Assembly: GCF_002803295.2 (NCBI RefSeq) | Contig: NZ_PGGB02000004.1 | Span: 82,265-101,900, forward strand | DNA from: Caedibacter taeniospiralis | GTDB taxonomy: Bacteria > Pseudomonadota > Gammaproteobacteria > Francisellales > Francisellaceae | Length of the DNA: 19,636 nucleotides | Direction of reading: 5' to 3' | Part shown: positions 2,231-19,411 of the stretch, piece after piece | How the letters are laid out: the number at the start of each line of letters is the position of its first letter | Position numbering within the stretch: position 1 is the first letter of the stretch | The notes under the pieces: model-generated | Database searches by the model: none | Seen by the model: only the letters and a program-made list of their open reading frames with translations | What the model was told of the DNA's origin: nothing | Translations under genes and position numbers: made by a program

Positions 2231-2458
2231 ATGATTGCAACAGTTTTTAAAAATGGGAATAGTCAAGCAGTGCGAATACCAAAGGCTTTACAGATTCACA
2301 CTAACAAGGTCGACATCACTAAAGTAGGTAGTGCATTAGTTATCAGAGAACTCCCTCAATCCTGGGATGAGGCATTTCAGTGCTTAAGTGAATTTGAAGA
2401 TTTCATGATTGAGGGAAAAAGTGATTTTCCTCCACAAACTCGAGAAGAATTTAAGTGA
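2231..2458 (+). CDS. vapB: VapB-type antitoxin (SpoVT/AbrB-like DNA-binding domain)
   Basis: The N-terminus MIATVFKNGNSQAVRIPKAL is the classical AbrB/MazE swapped-hairpin motif. GGAG at 2219-2222 lies 8 nt before ATG 2231, whereas the track ORF starts at GTG 2222. The stop overlaps the downstream PIN gene start (GTGA, 2455-2458). Confidence 0.85.
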   Translation: MIATVFKNGNSQAVRIPKALQIHTNKVDITKVGSALVIRELPQSWDEAFQCLSEFEDFMIEGKSDFPPQTREEFK

Positions 2459-2880
2459 TTAAATCAATGCTTGATACAAACATTTGTATTTTTATTATCA
2501 ATGAACGCCCTCCAATGGTGCTTGAAAGGCTAAAAGAATATAGATTCAACGAAATTGCCATATCTTCTATCGTCTACTCTGAACTAGCCTATGGCGCCTA
2601 CAAAAGCAAAAAAATAGATAAGAATATTGCAGCCCTTGCAGGTTTTGTTGCTCCACTATCAATCCTGAGCTTTGATAAAAACGCTGCCAACGAATATGGC
2701 ATCATACGATCCTCACTTGAATACCAAGGTCAGCTCATTGGGGCTAATGACCTATTGATAGCCGCACATGCAAAGAGCATGGATGTACCACTTATCACAA
2801 ATAACCTTAAGGAATTTAGCAGAGTTGAAGGACTAACGGTTATTGATTGGACCAAAACCACAACCCGCTCGAGAATTTAG
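2455..2880 (+). CDS. vapC: VapC-type PIN-domain toxin (ribonuclease)
   Basis: MLDTNICIF (first acidic PIN residue) near the N-terminus, a second acidic block SELAYG, and a C-terminal IGANDLLIAAHA..PLITNN. It is translationally coupled to vapB. The start is either GTG 2455 or ATG 2467. Confidence 0.85.
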   Translation: MIKSMLDTNICIFIINERPPMVLERLKEYRFNEIAISSIVYSELAYGAYKSKKIDKNIAALAGFVAPLSILSFDKNAANEYGIIRSSLEYQGQLIGANDLLIAAHAKSMDVPLITNNLKEFSRVEGLTVIDWTKTTTRSRI

Positions 2881-9866: not shown

Positions 9867-10625
9867 TTAAAGTTTTGATGTGCAAAGTGTCGAAAATAAC
9901 AAAGCCAGTGGTGAGATGCGAATACTCTGTGTAAATGGATTATCGATCTTTTGTACGAACTTTTTAACACATAAATTTTGCTGCTTGTGCAATAGAATGA
10001 GTGGTTTTAATTGTTTATAGGGCAGGTTTAACTGCGATATCATGATTTGCGCAGGCGCTAACAACGATTGAATAATCAGTCGGAATGTGTGCTGATTCAC
10101 GCTTGGGCGAAGCTCTTCATGCAGGTGAATGTTGCGTGAAAAATGTTTGCCAATCATTAAGATGTGCCGCAAGAGCTCATCGACGTGATTAAGGGTTTCA
10201 ATGGTCTTTATATCTTCGAAACCAAGTACTTTTGCCTTAAGTATTGCAATGCCAAGGAAGCTTTGACCTAAATCCAGACTGACTTGATAGTTGCGCCCTT
10301 TAGCAGTGGTGATTAAGGCGTATTGTAAGTCCTGCTGCAGAGGCTTAGTGAGCTCATCCATAGTGAAATATGCGCACAGTTTATCAATAAGCGGATGATT
10401 GCGATGTGACTTGGGATTAGTGAGTGCCTGCTGCCACCACTGCAATTTTTTCAGGCTTGGATAAGGTTCATGATAAAGCTCAGACGTCCTAAGCCATTGG
10501 TATTTTAGCTGATCCAGTGCGTAGAGTATTATGGTGGTTTCAGCATTGCATTTACGGTAAGCGTAGTAGTAAAGAGTCCCTGTTTTTGGAGTATTTTCAG
10601 TTAAGCACTCATATAGATAATCCAC
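9867..10625 (-). CDS. Hypothetical protein, weakly reminiscent of the squalene/phytoene synthase (isoprenoid synthase) fold
   Basis: 252 aa. LYYYAYRK...ILYAL...LKKLQWWQQAL...HPLIDKL resembles the N-terminal helices of phytoene-synthase-like proteins (ALYAF..R..DD, L.WWR..L, HPV). I cannot find the Asp-rich DxxxD motifs. It overlaps the gph stop by 25 nt, which suggests an operon with ubiG-gph. Confidence 0.35.
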   Translation of the reverse strand: MDYLYECLTENTPKTGTLYYYAYRKCNAETTIILYALDQLKYQWLRTSELYHEPYPSLKKLQWWQQALTNPKSHRNHPLIDKLCAYFTMDELTKPLQQDLQYALITTAKGRNYQVSLDLGQSFLGIAILKAKVLGFEDIKTIETLNHVDELLRHILMIGKHFSRNIHLHEELRPSVNQHTFRLIIQSLLAPAQIMISQLNLPYKQLKPLILLHKQQNLCVKKFVQKIDNPFTQSIRISPLALLFSTLCTSKL

Positions 10626-11293
10626 TGGCGTAATTGCTCCAAATTTGAGATTTTAAAATCATAATCGCTGCCTCCAAGTACACAAGCTTCGTAACCATAT
10701 TCGGCAAAAATGCGATAGCAATGTGCATGTTTAGCAGCAAGCATATCACTTTTGGTGTCACCTACATAGGCGCAATATTGAGGGGATATGCCAAGAGTTT
10801 TGACAGCGTAAATCAGTGGCATCGGATGTGGTTTTTTATAATTTAAGTCATCGGCGCACACAACGATACGCGCTTGATCATAATAGGGGACTTTAGCCAA
10901 TACAGACTCAGTAAGCTCACGCGTTTTACTTGTCACTATCCCCCATGAAATATCATGTGATTTTAGGGTTTCAATGATTTCTTTAACCCCTTGAAATGGG
11001 TGAGTTATGCTTACTGCGTGGGTTTGGTAGTGGGAAAAAGCTGCGTGTTTTAGGCTTAACAGTTGATCCTTGTTGAGTTTGTTATTGATTTTTTGTAATA
11101 GAAACTCAACACCACGACCCGCATGCTGTCTAAGTGTACTTGCCTCAAAATCAATAGTTAAATTATGACTGGTAAAGGCATACTGTATGGCGCTAAATAT
11201 TCCTGTCGATGAATCAAGCAATGTGCCGTCAAGGTCAAATAAAACAAGCTTAAGCTTAGGTTTCTTTTTTGAACGCGGCGATGTAGTTGACAT
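10601..11293 (-). CDS. gph: HAD-superfamily phosphoglycolate phosphatase-like hydrolase
   Basis: HAD motif I LVLFDLDGTLLDS, motif II VTSK, motif III/IV YVGDTKSDMLAAKHA. It sits immediately downstream of ubiG, a conserved gammaproteobacterial arrangement. Confidence 0.8.
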   Translation of the reverse strand: MSTTSPRSKKKPKLKLVLFDLDGTLLDSSTGIFSAIQYAFTSHNLTIDFEASTLRQHAGRGVEFLLQKINNKLNKDQLLSLKHAAFSHYQTHAVSITHPFQGVKEIIETLKSHDISWGIVTSKTRELTESVLAKVPYYDQARIVVCADDLNYKKPHPMPLIYAVKTLGISPQYCAYVGDTKSDMLAAKHAHCYRIFAEYGYEACVLGGSDYDFKISNLEQLRQWIIYMSA

Positions 11294-11954
11294 CTGCGTT
11301 ACCCCCCAAAGATAAACGCCTGGTCAATGGGTTATAATGGACACCCGTGATTTTTTTGATCTTCAACCCATGTCTATGTGCGCTGTTTATCAGTTCAAAC
11401 GGTTTAATATATTTGCTGTATTCATGCGTGCCTCTGGGAATCATATTCATGACATATTCCGCCATGACGATTGAAAGCACAAAGGATTTCAAATTGCGAT
11501 TAAGCGTTGAGAAAAATACCCAGCCATTTTCTTTACACAACTTTGCACAGGACTCGATAATGCTGTTAGGGTCTGGAACATGCTCAAGCATCTCCATGCA
11601 GGTGACGACATCAAAGCTTAAAGGTTTTTCACAAGCCAGTTGCTCCACAGGTTGTTTTAAATAACGAATAGACAAGTTGGACTCTAATAAGTGGAGCTTA
11701 GCCACATTGAGTGAGGCATCGGCCATATCTAAACCTGTCACCGTTGCACTGTGTCTGGCAAGCGCTTCGGTCAGAATGCCACCACCACAACCAATATCGG
11801 CAATATTAAGCCCTGAAAGCTTACCTGCAAATTGTTGAATAAAGGCAAGACGCAGCGGATTGACCTGATGCAAAGTATGAAACTCACCATCCTCACACCA
11901 CCATTGGTGTGCAAGGGCGCTAAACTTATTAATCTCAGATTGATCAACATTCAT
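11256..11954 (-). CDS. ubiG: Ubiquinone biosynthesis O-methyltransferase UbiG
   Basis: EINKFSALAHQWWCEDGEFHTLHQVNPLRLAFI closely parallels E. coli UbiG ([30 protein letters not shown]). SAM motif ADIGCGGGILTE. Confidence 0.9.
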   Translation of the reverse strand: MNVDQSEINKFSALAHQWWCEDGEFHTLHQVNPLRLAFIQQFAGKLSGLNIADIGCGGGILTEALARHSATVTGLDMADASLNVAKLHLLESNLSIRYLKQPVEQLACEKPLSFDVVTCMEMLEHVPDPNSIIESCAKLCKENGWVFFSTLNRNLKSFVLSIVMAEYVMNMIPRGTHEYSKYIKPFELINSAHRHGLKIKKITGVHYNPLTRRLSLGGNADVNYIAAFKKET

Positions 11955-12850: not shown

Positions 12851-12969
12851 ATACCTGATGATGTTCTACTTTCACATGGCGAATGCCACACTATCATCGA
12901 CGCTAACTGTTTTCACTTCTGAGTTCGGAATGGAATCAGGTGGTTCACAGTCGCTATTTTCATCAGGTA
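12851..12969 (-). rRNA. rrf: 5S rRNA
   Basis: The reverse complement reads TACCTGATGAAAATAGCGACTGTGAACCACCTGATTCCATTCCGAACTCAGAAGTGAAA...GTAGAACATCATCAGGTAT. The terminal helix pairs and the CCGAACTCAGAAGTGAAA block is universal. Confidence 0.95.
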
Positions 12970-13107
12970 ACCTGCGAGCAGAAAGCTCTAACAATCTATC
13001 ATAGAGTAATAACCAAGTCTCTCGGGCAATTAGTACTGGTTAGCTTCATACATTACTGCACTTCTACAGCCAGCCTATCAACGTCGTAGTCTTCAACAAC
13101 CCTTAAG

Positions 13108-13240
13108 CTAGAGACTAGAAACTAGAGACTAGAAACTAGAGCTTGAATCGCTTCGCGATGAATTGATTTATAAAAAACAACCCATCTTGCAAAGCAAGAC
13201 TCAACTCCTAGTTTCTAGTCTCTAGTTTCTAGTCTCTAGA
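13108..13240. mobile_element. Heptamer-armed palindromic element inserted in 23S helix 98
   Basis: Left arm CTAGAGA CTAGAAA CTAGAGA CTAGAAA CTAG (13108-13139). It is the perfect 32-nt reverse complement of the right arm (13208-13239). The core at 13141-13207 contains GAATCGCTTCGCGATGA...CCATCTTGCAAAGCAAGA. The flanks align to E. coli 23S at about 2790-2810. Confidence 0.85.
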
Positions 13241-13262
13241 CGGGAGATCTCATCTTGAGGCT

Positions 13263-13295
<33 letters not shown>

Positions 13296-13463
13296 ATTCC
13301 GAACGTAGCTACTGGGCTATGCCTCTGGCGAGACAACCCAAACACCAGCGGTTCGTTCATTCCGGTCCTCTCGTACTAGGAACAAACCCTCTCAAATCTC
13401 CTACGCCCACGGCAGATAGGGACCGAACTGTCTCACGACGTTCTAAACCCAGCTCGCGTACCA

Positions 13464-13544
<81 letters not shown>

Positions 13545-13570
13545 TCCGTCGATATGAACTCTTGGGAGGA

Positions 13571-13626
<56 letters not shown>

Positions 13627-14045
13627 AGAACCACCGGATCACTAAGACCTACTTTCGTACCTGATCGAGCCGTCACTCTCTCAGTTAAGCGCACTTTTGC
13701 CTTTATACTCTTGGCGCGATTTCCGACCGCGCCGAGTGCACCTTCGTACTCCTCCGTTACTCTTTAGGAGGAGACCGCCCCAGTCAAACTACCCACCATA
13801 CACTGTCCTCGACTCTCGTCTGAGTTAGAACTCCAAAAATATCAGGGTGGTATTTCAACGTCGACTCCTTCCATACTAGCGTACGAATCTCTTAGTCTCC
13901 CACCTATCCTACACAAATATTCTCAAAGTCCAGTGCAAAGCTATAGTAAAGGTTCACGGGGTCTTTCCGTCTAACCGCGGGTACGCTGCATCTTCACAGC
14001 GATTTCAATTTCACTGAGTCCCAGATGGAGACAGTGTGGCCATCG

Positions 14046-14127
<82 letters not shown>

Positions 14128-14149
14128 TGGGGCTTCGATCCAGAGCTTC

Positions 14150-14452
14150 TCCTACCACTTAATTACTCTGATATTTCTTCTCTTAAGCCTTTATACAACA
14201 AACTCCTCATTCGATTCGCTCGCTTTAATTTAGCTTCTCTTAACCTAGCAAGCTTTTCACTTGCGTAAGCTTCGTAGTAGACAAGAATCCAATCTCTCGT
14301 TCGGCTTGTATATCTACTTCTACCCGACTTATGCGAATCAATCCTTTTCCTTAGGTTTTCACTATAACCCACAAGTAAAAACTATCTAATTCTTTCGAAT
14401 AAATCACGTATACACAATACATATCAAACTCCAAAATAATTAAGTGGTAGGA
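14150..14452. other. 23S intervening sequence at the tip of the H68 region (about E. coli 1865-1875), carrying a GIY-YIG ORF
   Basis: A perfect 16-bp inverted repeat: TCCTACCACTTAATTA (14150-14165) and TAATTAAGTGGTAGGA (14437-14452). The flanking rRNA reads GGGGTTATCC..[insert]..GGAGAAGCTCTGGATCGAAGCCCC, against E. coli GGGGUUAGCGCAAGCGAAGCUCUUGAUCGAAGCCCC. Confidence 0.8.
14163..14422 (-). pseudogene. Small GIY-YIG nuclease-family ORF (COG2827/UPF0213-like), split by a 1-nt frameshift
   Basis: ATG 14422 is preceded by TGGAG 6 nt upstream and gives MYCVYVIYSKELDSFYL (the GIY half), then stops at 14351-14353. The -1 frame from 14372 continues VGYSENLRKRIDSHKSGRSRYTSRTRDWILVYYEAYASEKLARLREAKLKR (the YIG..R..H..G...E half). 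That second frame is the track ORF 14163-14372. Same strand as the rRNA. Confidence 0.7.
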
Positions 14453-14591
14453 TAACCCCTTCAATTAACCTTCCAGCACCGGGCAGGCGTCACACCCTAT
14501 ACTTCCTCTTCCGAGTTCGCAGAGTGCTGTGTTTTTAGTAAACAGTCGCAGCCACCTGGTATTTGCAACCTCTTCACGCTCCAGACGTTCA

Positions 14592-14691
14592 CCTGACCAC
14601 TAAATTCCACGTCCTACAACAGGCTATCAACAAATTGTCTATCTCTACAACTCTCAACAGCTTTCATCCATCATAGAATTTAGTGGTCAGG
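14592..14691. other. 23S intervening sequence in helix 63 (100 bp, no ORF)
   Basis: A perfect 16-bp inverted repeat: CCTGACCACTAAATTC (14592-14607) and GAATTTAGTGGTCAGG (14676-14691). The flanks align with the variable H63 region of E. coli 23S (about 1700-1745). Confidence 0.75.
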
Positions 14692-15245
14692 CAAGTCCTT
14701 CACCCTAATGAGGCACACCTTCTCCCGAAGTTACGGTGTCATTTTGCCTAGTTCCTTCACCTGGGTTCTCTCATCGCCTTGGTATTCTCTACCCACCCAC
14801 CAGTGTCGGTTTACAGTACGGTCAATGGTAATTTATGCTTAGAAGCTTTTCCTGGAAGCCGAGCATCAATCTCTTGGCAGAACCCCGTAGAGCCCTGTTC
14901 CCTCTCACGCCTCAGATCATCATACACCCGGATTTGCCTAAGTGCACTACCTACACGCTTTCACCTGGACTACCATCCGCCAGGCAGACCTAGCTTTCTC
15001 CGTCTCTCCATCGCAACTACCATCGGTACAGGAATATTAACCTGTTTCCCATCGACTACTCCCTTCGGATTCGCCTTAGGCGCCGACTTACCCTACGTTG
15101 ATTAACATTGCGTAGGAAACCTTGGGTTTTCGGCCAATAAGAATCTCACTTATTTATCGTTACTCATGTCAGCATTCGCACTTCTGATACCTCCAGCACA
15201 CTTCTCAATGCACCTTCATAAGCTTACAGAACGCTCCCCTACCGA

Positions 15246-15678
15246 CTAGAAACTAGATACTAGAAACTAGATACTAGAATAGACATCAGCTATATCTTCT
15301 CTGTATACCTCTTAACATTCGCCCAACTTCGCAATACCTCTCATCGTAGCCCCTATGACTCTCCTGATCGATATACCCTAAGTCCCTTGCAAAATCCAGC
15401 CACACCCGGCATTCATCGCAAGAGCCTATCGCTATCTGAACAAACCTTCTTACTTCCTTTTCACTCGCTTGCTTGCCCATCCCTTCCGCTATGTTCGCAC
15501 ATATGGATTTGCTCGCTCGCCTTAATTGACTCCCAATCTCACACTGTTCTATCCGCGGCCACTTCATACTCTCCACGTGTAGCTCCAGCGCTAACTGATA
15601 TGCCTTCTGATATACTGATAAATTGTGATACGGCATCTTATCTCCTCTAGTCTCCAGTTTCTAGTCTCTAGTCTCTAG
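15246..15678. mobile_element. 23S helix 45 intervening sequence with heptamer arms and an S23p ORF
   Basis: Left arm CTAGAAA CTAGATA CTAGAAA CTAGATA CTAGAAT (15246-15280). Right arm CTAGTCT CCAGTTT CTAGTCT CTAGTCT CTAG (15647-15678). The flanks are CACCGAAGCTGCGGGA... and ...TCGGTAGGGGAGCGTTCTGTAAGC, which is the classical H45 IVS site. Confidence 0.9.
15286..15636 (-). CDS. Four-helix-bundle protein, 23S rRNA-intervening-sequence protein family (S23p; Avd-like)
   Basis: LSVYQKAYQLALELH...WPRIEQCEIGSQLRRASKSICANIAEGMGKQASEKEVRRFVQIAIGSCDECRVWLDFARDLGYI matches the family pattern (VWQKA..L...IY...FP..E...L..Q.RRAA.SI..NIAEG..R....E...FL.IA.GS..E....L..A..LGY). A strong GAGGAG lies 6 nt before the ATG. 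Same strand as the rRNA. Confidence 0.9.
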   Translation of the reverse strand: MPYHNLSVYQKAYQLALELHVESMKWPRIEQCEIGSQLRRASKSICANIAEGMGKQASEKEVRRFVQIAIGSCDECRVWLDFARDLGYIDQESHRGYDERYCEVGRMLRGIQRRYS

Positions 15679-15734
15679 TCCCGCAGCTTCGGTGTATCGC
15701 TTAGCCCCGTTAAATCTTTCGCGCAGGCCGACTC

Positions 15735-15798
<64 letters not shown>

Positions 15799-15833
15799 AT
15801 GCCTTCCCACATCGTTTCCCACTTAGCGATAAC

Positions 15834-15871
<38 letters not shown>

Positions 15872-16291
15872 CCACGACGGACCTTAGCACCCGCCGTGTG
15901 TCTCCCGTGATTCAACTTCGTCGTATTCTAAGTTTGCATCGAGTCGGTAAGATCGCAAAATCCCCCTAGTCGAAACAGTGCTTTACCCCAACGAGTCATT
16001 CACAAGGCACTACCTAAATAGTTTTCGGGGAGAACCAGCTATCTCCGCGCTTGATTAGCCTTTCACTCCGATCCACAACTCATCCCATAATTTTGCAACA
16101 TTACCGGGTTCGGTCCTCCAGTTGGTGTTACCCAACCTTCAACCTGGTCATGGATAGATCGCGTCGGTTTCGGGTCTACTCCTAGCGACTGTCCGCTCTA
16201 TTAAAACTCGCTTTCGCTACGGATCCCTTATTCAGTTATCCTCGCCACTAAAAGTAACTCGCTGACCCATTATACAAAAGGTACGCCATCA

Positions 16292-16436
16292 CTAGTCTCC
16301 TAGAAACTAGAAACTAGAGACTAGAAACCAGGAGTCGTATCTTGCTTTGCAAGATGATTTATTTTTGTAAATTAATCATCGCGAAGCGCTTCAACCCCTA
16401 ATCTCTAGTCTCTAGTTTCTAGTCTCTAGTTTCTAG
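16292..16436. mobile_element. Heptamer-armed palindromic element inserted in 23S helix 25
   Basis: Left arm CTAGTCT C CTAGAAA CTAGAAA CTAGAGA CTAGAAA (16292-16327). Right arm CTAATCT CTAGTCT CTAGTTT CTAGTCT CTAGTTT CTAG (16398-16436). The core at 16328-16397 is the reverse complement of the H98 core type. The flanks are GCGTACAAGCAGTCAGAG... and ...GATGGCGTACCTTTTGTATAATGG, which is the H25 IVS site. Confidence 0.85.
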
Positions 16437-16768
16437 CTCTGACTGCTTGTACGCAAACGGTTTCAGGTTCTATTTCACTCCCCTCATCGGGGTTCTTTTC
16501 GCCTTTCCCTCACGGTACTGGTTCACTATCGGTCAGTCAGTAGTATTTAGCCTTGGAGGATGGTCCCCCCTTCTTCAAACAGGATTTCTCGTGTCCCGCC
16601 CTACTTATTCGTATACCTAGTTCCACATCCAAGCTTTCGTCTACAGGACTATCACCTGCTATGGTCATCCTTCCCAGAATGTTCGACTAACTCACATGCT
16701 AAAGTATACCAGGCTCTTCCCCCTTCGCTCGCCGCTACTTAGGGAATCTCGGTTGATTTCTTTTCCTA

Positions 16769-16799
<31 letters not shown>

Positions 16800-16870
16800 C
16801 GCCTCACTTAACTTACGTCAGTGATACCCCACTCTTAAAATACTCATTCATGCACAAATTACACCCTCTA

Positions 16871-16943
16871 CTCACTCTAGTTTCTAGTTTCCAATCTCTA
16901 GTTTCTCGAAATGAATAAAGTGCTGAGCACTTTATGAGTGAGG
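16871..16943. repeat. Insert in 23S domain I (H9/H10 area) containing a solo heptamer arm
   Basis: CTCACTC (16871-16877) pairs with GAGTGAG (16937-16943). Inside are CTAGTTT CTAGTTT CCAATCT CTAGTTT (16877-16904) and a small hairpin AAAGTGC-TGA-GCACTTT. No complementary heptamer arm is present. The region is about 90 nt longer than E. coli 23S at about 130-180. Confidence 0.6.
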
Positions 16944-17089
16944 TGGGTTCCCCCATTCAGATATCTTCGGATCAATGCTTATTTGCCAGCTCCCCGAAGC
17001 TTTTCGCAGGCTATCACGTCTTTCCTCGCCTCTGACTGCCAAGGCATCCGCCGTTTGCGCTTATTCTCTTGGTCATTACTCTATAATAA

Positions 17090-17102: not shown

Positions 17103-17107
17103 TCGGC

Positions 17108-17249
17108 TCTAGATACTAGAACGCTCGCTGCGCTTACTCTAGAAACTAGAAACCAGACTCGAATCGCTTCGCGATGATTCATTTAAAAAATCATCTCGCA
17201 CAGCAAGATTCAATCCCTAGTTTCTAGTCTCTTGACACTAGTCTCTAGA
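17108..17249. mobile_element. Heptamer-armed element, spacer copy a (tRNA-Ala to 23S)
   Basis: 142 bp, identical by eye to 17326-17467. Outer arms TCTAGATACTAGA / TAGTCTCTAGA. Inner arms CTAGAAACTAGAAACC / CCCTAGTTTCTAGTCTC. Core GAATCGCTTCGCGATGATTCATTTAAAAAATCATCTCGCACAGCAAGATTC. Confidence 0.85.
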
Positions 17250-17325
17250 TGGTGGAGCCAAGGAGGATCGAACTCCTGACCTCCTGCGTGCAAAGCAGGC
17301 GCTCTCCCAGCTGAGCTATGGCCCC
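17250..17325 (-). tRNA. tRNA-Ala (anticodon TGC), CCA encoded
   Basis: The reverse complement is GGGGCCATAGCTCAGCTGGGAGAGCGCCTGCTTTGCACGCAGGAGGTCAGGAGTTCGATCCTCCTTGGCTCCACCA. It has the G3:U70 identity pair and a cloverleaf very close to E. coli tRNA-Ala(UGC). Confidence 0.97.
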
Positions 17326-17467
17326 TCTAGATACTAGAACGCTCGCTGCGCTTACTCTAGAAACTAGAAACCAGACTCGAATCGCTTCGCGATGATTCAT
17401 TTAAAAAATCATCTCGCACAGCAAGATTCAATCCCTAGTTTCTAGTCTCTTGACACTAGTCTCTAGA
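17326..17467. mobile_element. Heptamer-armed element, spacer copy b (tRNA-Ile to tRNA-Ala)
   Basis: Identical to 17108-17249. It lies directly 3' of the tRNA-Ile CCA end in the transcript. Confidence 0.85.
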
Positions 17468-17544
<77 letters not shown>

Positions 17545-17545
17545 A

Positions 17546-17658
17546 CTAGATACTAGAGACTAGAGACTAGTTTCTAGAAGTATTCTAGTTTCTAGTCTCT
17601 AGTCTCTAGTCTCTAGTTTCTAGTTTCTAGTTTCTAGTCTCTAGTTTCTAGTCTCTAG
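17546..17658. repeat. Core-less heptamer array between 16S and tRNA-Ile
   Basis: CTAGATA CTAGAGA CTAGAGA CTAG (17546-17570), then TTTCTAG AAGTATT, then ten consecutive 7-bp units CTAGTTT/CTAGTCT starting at 17585, 17592 ... 17648, closed by CTAG (17655-17658). Confidence 0.9.

Positions 17659-17775: not shown

Positions 17776-19411
<1,636 letters not shown>

Follow-up and report, generated by a model that had tools for sequence, protein, structure and literature searches.

The stretch analysed here (19,636 nt; the window) comes from Caedibacter taeniospiralis (GCF_002803295.2, contig NZ_PGGB02000004.1, positions 82,265 to 101,900) and carries on its reverse strand (-) a ribosomal RNA (rrn) operon in which the 23S rRNA gene is interrupted at helix 45 by an intervening sequence (IVS) encoding a protein of the S23p family. 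The IVS is 437 nt long (15244-15680(-)) when delimited as an insertion relative to the Rfam large-subunit (LSU) rRNA model and Escherichia coli 23S rRNA, and it replaces the hairpin loop of helix 45 (Rfam LSU model ~1207-1230; E. coli ~1163-1185), leaving the flanking 23S sequence intact. The Rfam alignment and a MAFFT alignment against E. coli rrlH agree on helix 45, the site named in an earlier note made on this DNA from its letters; that note located the element correctly but drew it 2 nt too short on each side. Two arms of 40 nt each, 85% complementary, bound the IVS. Read in rRNA sense, the 5' arm is purine-rich (15641-15680(-); CTAGAGA, CTAGAGA, CTAGAAA, CTGGAGA, CTAGAGG) and the 3' arm is its pyrimidine-rich complement (15244-15283(-); TTCTAGT, ATCTAGT, TTCTAGT, ATCTAGT, TTCTAGTC), and Tandem Repeats Finder resolves them as period-7 arrays of 5.0 and 5.1 copies. 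Between the arms lies the S23p open reading frame (ORF; 15286-15636(-)), which has an ATG start, 116 codons for amino acids and a TGA stop, and a GAGGAG Shine-Dalgarno sequence (15642-15647(-)), 5 nt away on its upstream side, forms part of the final heptamer of the 5' arm. Translation supports the earlier description of an intact 116-aa ORF co-oriented with the rRNA, the Shine-Dalgarno sequence was rightly placed at the inner end of the 5' arm (15647-15642(-)), and the arms are, as stated there, the same CTAGANA arrays that bound ORF-less elements elsewhere in the operon. The window contains 49 matches to the dimer CTAGANACTAGANA (≤1 mismatch), where 0.13 would be expected; all of them lie inside the rrn operon and 0 in 12.8 kb of protein-coding DNA.

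Folding of 15225-15700(-) predicts a stem of ~40 bp with the ORF in its loop (free energy -156 kcal/mol; z -5.7 versus shuffled sequences), and the mismatches or G.U pairs in the predicted stem are single and coincide with position 6 of the heptamers, the variable one. Neither a sigma-70-like promoter nor an intrinsic terminator was found in 15100-15850, no group I or group II ribozyme was found in the region, where Rfam matches are to LSU rRNA only, and no homing endonuclease is encoded by the helix-45 ORF, which matches only PF05635 and, weakly, PF22296 in Pfam. The element is an S23p-carrying IVS of the class known from Coxiella and Leptospira, and is ordinary in kind. By analogy with Coxiella, Salmonella and Leptospira, it would be transcribed from the rrn promoter as part of pre-23S rRNA, the two heptamer arrays would pair into the ~40-bp stem, and RNase III would cut this stem without re-ligation, yielding a fragmented 23S rRNA and releasing a ~400-nt RNA that would be the S23p mRNA. 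The reliance on the rrn promoter proposed in the earlier note would fit both the lack of a promoter-like site in the searched interval and the excision by RNase III that is known for IVSs of this kind (PMC4990558).

The encoded protein matches the S23p family models well above their cutoffs (PF05635, E 7e-32, 110.2 bits versus 33.8; TIGR02436, E 1.9e-30, 105.3 bits versus 24). An AlphaFold2 monomer model built with 36 homologues has a predicted local distance difference test score (pLDDT) of 96 and four long helices, and Foldseek aligns the protein with Xcc0516 (2GSC; template modelling (TM) score ~0.9, root-mean-square deviation 1.2-1.6 Å), BT_0352 (2RLD; TM ~0.8) and bAvd (4DWL; TM 0.76). 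A profile search of PDB sequences also recovers 2GSC (E 1.6e-15) and 2RLD (E 1.1e-8). The family models, the predicted structure and the 2GSC match all uphold the earlier identification of the cargo as an S23p four-helix bundle. Xcc0516 and BT_0352, which are pentameric, share both family and fold with the window protein; their PDB and Foldseek listings, the extent of this comparison, give no rRNA context, and 2GSC is titled a cytosolic protein. The family motif (G)xxRxxxSxxxNxxE (PMC3936711) is represented by R40, S44, N48 and E51, the leading G lying off the quoted spacing; among 36 homologues N48 and E51 are invariant and S44 nearly so. The protein database holds 908 homologues, the closest non-identical cluster being 72% identical, and a cluster at 99% identity is also present. 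An identical protein, intact and between the same arms, is encoded on two short contigs of other assemblies (L001 and L002), and the phage collection has no relative at E ≤ 1e-3.

The earlier note also called the ORF Avd-like, which holds for the fold: bAvd (4DWL, 8UB7) is a four-helix bundle of the same superfamily. Membership of Avd itself was rejected, as NF033474 scores 24.6 bits against a cutoff of 80 and PF22296 21.2 against 40. None of the ten larger ORFs scanned elsewhere in the window encodes a reverse transcriptase, and no template/variable repeat pair adjoins the S23p gene, which lies inside the 23S rRNA gene. The avd gene of BPP-1 lacks heptamer arrays and has a 30-nt GC hairpin upstream and the template repeat directly downstream. 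Because the Avd models stay below cutoff and BPP-1 avd is without heptamers, the protein is S23p, with kinship to Avd only at the superfamily level.

Scanning an S23p alignment against one genome per species yielded 80 loci. The helix-45 flanks of the window bracket an insertion at helix 45 in 27 of these, and 24 of the 27 insertions hold an S23p ORF, always in rRNA sense; in two further loci, L006 and L024, only one flank matches or the ORF sits at another 23S site. Arms of CTAGANA type occur at helix 45 in ~20 loci from at least six phyla, including Wenzhouxiangellaceae, Endozoicomonas and other Gamma- and Betaproteobacteria, Desulfospira and Desulfotignum (Desulfobacterota), Tangfeifania (Bacteroidota), an Actinomycetes metagenome-assembled genome (MAG), Phycisphaerae, Planctomycetota and Tepidisphaeraceae. 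Across these relatives C-T-A-G-A-N-A is conserved with position 6 alone free, most 5' arms have five units, the start codon is conserved, and an SD-like (Shine-Dalgarno-like) AGGAG recurs at this position in most of them. At greater distance (42-52% identity), S23p genes are accompanied by different heptamers: GTCAGGT in Methyloligellaceae and a proteobacterium MAG, GGTCAGT in one alphaproteobacterium, TTAGTRN in another, and an ACAG type in a gammaproteobacterium and Azospirillum. This last type is similar to GACAGAT, the repeat described ahead of the S23p start codon in Coxiella.

In Coxiella burnetii (Afseth 1995; Warrier et al. 2016), helix 45 of 23S rRNA holds an IVS of ~430 nt whose terminal inverted repeats pair into a stem, in which RNase III cuts; it encodes S23p in rRNA sense, and tandem GACAGAT heptamers immediately precede the start codon (PMC4990558). 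Site, stem, ORF sense and the position of heptamers before the start codon are thus alike in Coxiella and the window; the heptamers differ (GACAGAT versus CTAGANA), as do their numbers (two or three units versus five per arm), and the window operon adds ORF-less elements with the same arms in 16S, 23S and spacer. The earlier note had taken heptamer arms to set this element apart from the classical IVS, which the ~20 CTAGANA relatives, the heptamers of other S23p clades and Coxiella GACAGAT contradict: since relatives and Coxiella carry them, heptamer arms are the norm for S23p IVSs. The Leptospira 23S IVSs described by Ralph and McClelland in 1993 and 1994 reportedly contain an ORF and inverted repeats, are excised without ligation and bear evidence of horizontal transfer. 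Both the Leptospira and window IVSs are ORF-bearing and bounded by inverted repeats, the comparison being one of layout. Salmonella IVSs (Burgin 1990) are reported to lie in helices 25 and 45, to be excised by RNase III, leaving a fragmented 23S rRNA, and to be short and without an ORF (PMC4990558). They share the two insertion sites with the window and resemble its ORF-less elements more than its S23p element.

Relatives also carry ORF-less IVSs, whose arms are of the same heptamer type as those of the S23p IVS in that operon. They are found at 16S 453-479 and helix 25 in L012 (CTAGANA), at helix 25 and position 1710 in L013, at position 1931 in L016 and L019, and at position 262 in L017 (local type in each); at helix 25 in the Desulfobacterota loci (CAAGANA/CTAGANA) and in L026 (GTCAGGT); at 16S 217 and 23S 552 and 653 in L033 (TTAGTAA); and in L020 (CTAGGTG). 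Their cores are dissimilar between genomes. An uncultured gammaproteobacterium MAG (L028) has two S23p genes in one 23S rRNA gene, at 9913-10426 and 11038-11543. The one in helix 25 shares 61% identity with the query, and its CTAGANA arms are enclosed by a different outer stem; the one in helix 45 shares 48% identity and is bounded by ACAG-type arms. A second locus of the same MAG (L010) has the helix-25 copy only, with a normal helix 45. The L028 paralogs keep their own heptamers under the same host enzymes. Within rRNA cassettes, G.U-compatible arm mismatches favour the sense strand (42 versus 18), a bias that suggests RNA-level constraint within rRNA. We note that 23S inserts at E. coli ~1917-1951 in two Planctomycetota loci (L016, 11098-11573; L019, 11131-11585) are 455-476 nt long and have heptamer arms; those at the same positions in L003 (11136-12051) and L009 (11132-12432) are 916-1301 nt long, lack heptamer arms and may be introns.

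The association of S23p with heptamers extends beyond rRNA. About 90 S23p genes from many phyla, inside and outside rRNA, were examined overall, and Tandem Repeats Finder was run over 1.24 Mb of loci, counting a period-7 array at ≤150 nt from a gene. Across all loci, 54 of 78 S23p genes have such an array, 35 of them on both sides, compared with 60 and 3 of 716 control genes from the same loci (69% of S23p genes versus 8% of neighbouring genes; Fisher p 5e-33 for any side and 9e-36 for both sides). In loci without rRNA the counts are 33 of 45 S23p genes (18 on both sides) and 53 of 436 controls (3 on both sides). Non-rRNA S23p genes have a heptamer array upstream and its complement downstream, with very diverse heptamer sequences, in Flavobacteriaceae, Desulfobacterales, Planctomycetota, Hyphomonadaceae, Micavibrio and candidate phyla (candidate phyla radiation, CPR). 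In an independent annotated collection, all plasmid-borne S23p genes examined (12/12) have such flanks; this set is mostly cyanobacterial, plus an Azospirillum 23S copy. On three of the cyanobacterial plasmids (L207, L209 and L214), S23p and its heptamer flanks lie between cas6 and cas4 or cmr2 and cmr3 and point in the same direction as the cas genes; S23p family genes inside cas loci were reported earlier (PMC3936711). The flanking arrays of the Pseudanabaena locus L207 are direct, not inverted: AAAAGCT (12 copies) and AAAAGCC.

These arrays are polar with respect to the gene. On the coding strand, inside and outside rRNA, the upstream array is purine-rich in 44 of 52 cases and the downstream array pyrimidine-rich in 48 of 56, and the window arms fit this layout, with a purine-rich period-7 array upstream of the ORF and the complementary array downstream. 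Non-rRNA S23p genes are co-oriented with the gene upstream in 35 of 39 cases, versus 257 of 381 controls (p 0.003). Heptamer type follows protein clade: the more alike two S23p proteins are, the more alike their heptamers (Mantel rho 0.27, p < 0.0005), and the two genes of L028 show this within one 23S rRNA gene. Together, these patterns make it likely that the helix-45 element belongs to a class of promoter-less, oriented cassettes that reside in host transcripts and are excised at their own stem by RNase III. The window element would then be one copy of a widespread cassette consisting of purine-rich heptamers, a Shine-Dalgarno sequence, the S23p gene and pyrimidine-rich heptamers, which would lack its own promoter, and would rely on residence in rRNA or co-directional operons for transcription. 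Arms and ORF have been transferred together across phyla.

Several observations weigh against this reading. The Shine-Dalgarno sequence is base-paired in the predicted precursor fold, so that processing or melting of the stem would gate translation, and S23p was not detected in vivo in Coxiella, where the ORF was judged to be decaying (PMC4990558). Outside rRNA, G.U-compatible arm mismatches have no sense-strand bias (48 versus 42). The rRNA-borne cassettes are phylogenetically related, so tests and p-values based on them are optimistic, and the correlation of protein with heptamer type could be explained by co-inheritance alone. Several heptamer types occur within one 20-kb locus in many genomes. 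Finally, an unbiased scan of metagenome contigs for four CTAGANA units, which ignored the protein, returned 80 loci (L084-L163), of which only ~6 are in rRNA and ~6 have S23p nearby; the remaining arrays are intergenic, often solitary and beside ordinary genes. Given that most CTAGANA arrays are without S23p and that types are mixed, heptamer arrays need no adjacent S23p gene. Some of the metagenome arrays reach ~240 nt, and neighbouring genes include those for ribosomal protein S3 and phosphoglucose isomerase. The same scan disposed of the idea that CTAGANA is specific to rRNA or S23p, which the S23p-selected loci had suggested (73 arrays in rrn operons versus 3 outside).

The sequestered Shine-Dalgarno sequence and the conclusion of the Coxiella study (PMC4990558) would both fit an ORF that is a non-expressed relic, its coding sequence decaying while the RNA stem alone matters. 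This is very improbable for the window element. Intact copies of the ORF are present in the window, L001, L002 and ~30 rRNA-borne relatives, the start codon and SD-like sequence are conserved, and 35 residues are invariant across 36 homologues. Against 17 relatives, the proportion of non-synonymous differences (pN, 0.21-0.33) is far below that of synonymous differences (pS, 0.76-1.05, saturated), from which it follows that the S23p ORF is under strong purifying selection, unlike the conclusion reached for Coxiella.

Another explanation is that the arms are only RNase III substrates generated by slippage and that S23p is a passenger, coupled to the repeats by joint inheritance and transfer and otherwise unrelated to them. 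On this view polymerase slippage readily creates heptamer arrays in bacteria, and any two long complementary arrays would serve well as a stem for excision. Heptamer repeats are over-represented in bacterial genomes generally (PMC4692102, PMC4679880), most metagenome CTAGANA arrays have no S23p gene close by, a single locus can contain several heptamer types, copy number differs between Coxiella strains and the Mantel correlation is modest, all of which a passenger would accommodate. It would leave unexplained the 69% versus 8% array frequency of S23p and neighbouring genes, the fixed purine/pyrimidine polarity relative to the ORF both in and outside rRNA, the persistence of CTAGA-A across phyla while synonymous sites of the ORF are saturated, and the different heptamers of two paralogs exposed to the same RNase III in one 23S rRNA. 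We regard a passenger as a substantial possibility, though one short of probable.

Whether S23p acts on these arms or RNAs, a question raised in the earlier note, receives indirect support from the family-wide association with arrays, their polarity and the conserved motif. From the conservation of the motif across phyla despite saturated synonymous sites, the polarity of the arrays and the distinct heptamers of the L028 paralogs, we infer, tentatively and with more doubt than confidence, that an S23p pentamer may bind the heptamers of its own cassette and of the ORF-less copies. Motif conservation may have an alternative source, as a multi-copy, self-complementary array would be slow to change regardless of any reader, and the many metagenome CTAGANA arrays without S23p nearby weaken the case for binding. 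A match between five heptamers and five subunits was considered and dropped: five 5'-arm units are present in 11 of 19 clade members and rrn arrays have 4.4-5.0 copies, and the match stays speculation because the detection threshold drops short arrays and non-rRNA arrays reach at least 15 copies.

Inverted flanking repeats invite a further comparison, with repetitive extragenic palindromes and their associated transposases (REP/RAYT), in which a protein gene is flanked by inverted short repeats, many ORF-less copies exist and the repeat type tracks the protein clade. On this model S23p would act on heptamer hairpins in DNA as a factor for their mobility or maintenance, and the ORF-less copies would have spread in trans to rRNA loops. 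The S23p gene is indeed flanked by inverted arrays, the ORF-less IVSs of L012, L013, L016, L019, L026 and L033 agree with the local heptamer type, helix 25 of L010 and L028 holds a CTAGANA-plus-ORF module nested in another outer stem, and S23p genes are wedged inside cas operons (PMC3936711). The likeness is one of analogy only: S23p, a 116-aa four-helix bundle in the window, has no recognizable transposase or nuclease motif and no known catalytic motif, and its repeats are tandem heptamers rather than single palindromes. The sense-strand G.U bias indicates constraint at the RNA level within rRNA. The confinement of window and CTAGANA-clade arrays to rrn operons (73 versus 3) also sits poorly with free mobility, although it could equally reflect selection on tolerated sites; target-site duplications did not turn up, no search having been aimed at them. 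DNA-level mobility driven by S23p is an improbable account, though less so than decay of the ORF.

A broader version of the binding idea is that the S23p family comprises sequence-specific readers of tandem heptamers, each clade with its own heptamer and possibly with one repeat per pentamer subunit, and that S23p with its polar arrays forms a widespread selfish or regulatory module, resident in host transcripts, whose ORF-less derivatives colonize rRNA loops and intergenic regions. We consider this rather unlikely, slightly more so than binding within the cassette. If true, it would assign a role to proteins that have lacked one since 1993 and would explain part of the excess of 7-nt repeats in bacterial genomes, and if S23p does read the repeats, both its role and heptamer abundance become testable by a simple binding experiment. 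Intergenic heptamers are known as the short tandemly repeated repetitive (STRR) sequences of cyanobacteria, TAACTGA in Beggiatoaceae and GGGAATC in Xanthomonas, and occur in Bacteroidota too (PMC4679880, PMC4692102); the bacterial heptamer excess has no accepted function (PMC4692102, PMC4679880), and neither of these two papers mentions S23p or rRNA IVSs. Like S23p arms, these arrays are tandem, 7-nt and non-coding, but they are mostly solitary and not paired around a gene. S23p genes were found here in Cyanobacteria and Bacteroidota, and the S23p structure 2GSC is from Xanthomonas. No prior report of a family-wide, polar S23p-heptamer association was found in the searchable literature, where the Coxiella 5' arm is the only S23p IVS arm described as containing heptamers and the observation is not generalized; a survey of rRNA insertions in CPR that found the S23p family does not mention repeats.

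The remainder of the window operon comprises, in order of transcription and all on the reverse strand, 16S (17776-19411), tRNA-Ile (17468-17544), tRNA-Ala (17250-17325), 23S (13009-17074) and 5S (12853-12967). The best identity for the 16S sequence is only 85.7%, to an uncultured gammaproteobacterial MAG. The 23S gene is 4066 nt long against a 2925-position model and has ~1.1 kb of insertions in total. ORF-less elements with CTAGANA arms are present at 23S helix 25 (E. coli ~540-546; 137-nt insertion, 16299-16440(-)), near the 23S 3' end (E. coli ~2789-2805; 134 nt, 13108-13241(-)) and in 16S (E. coli ~76-100; 122-nt insertion, 19214-19342(-)), and three heptamer-armed hairpins lie in the 16S-23S spacer on both sides of tRNA-Ile and tRNA-Ala (17107-17658(-)). 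Five ORF-less elements (two in 23S, one in 16S and two in the spacer at 17107-17452) align mutually and have in common a central core of ~60 nt between the arms (TTGAATC..GCGNGATGATT..AATCATC..GATTCGA). Because this core is alignable, the five are copies belonging to a single repeat family, not expansions that arose independently. An origin as deletion derivatives of the S23p IVS was rejected, the ~60-nt core being without similarity to either end of the IVS interior. A 218-nt tandem duplication, also reported by Tandem Repeats Finder, extends over 17107-17557, spanning hairpins and tRNA-Ile and overlapping the end of tRNA-Ala.

Three further insertions in 23S differ from these. One at E. coli ~138-171 has partial heptamers, one of 104 nt at E. 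coli ~1735 (14584-14687(-)) has plain 12-nt inverted arms (ACCACTAAATTC / GAATTTAGTGGT) and no heptamers, and one of 295 nt at E. coli ~1868 (14156-14450(-)) has plain, non-heptamer inverted arms (CTACCACTTAATTA / TAATTAAGTGGTAG). The last contains a GIY-YIG domain split over two frames, with a 69-aa piece that matches PF01541 (E 2.4e-9) and an N-terminal piece ('YCVYVIYS..') in another frame. This probably represents a nuclease gene with a frameshift, carried by an IVS of a second, distinct kind. With four heptamer-armed insertions (one of them partial) and two others in 23S and one in 16S, heavily fragmented rRNA is predicted, and such rrn insertions confound rRNA-based assembly, binning and primer design. 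The larger ORFs elsewhere in the window encode a radical-SAM/TRAM enzyme, a CN-hydrolase, a Trp/Tyr permease, a HAD hydrolase, a methyltransferase and a PIN-domain protein. The PIN-domain ORF (PF01850, E 2.8e-17; 2455-2880(+)) lies ~10 kb from the rrn operon, is apparently unrelated to it and possibly encodes the toxin of a toxin-antitoxin system.

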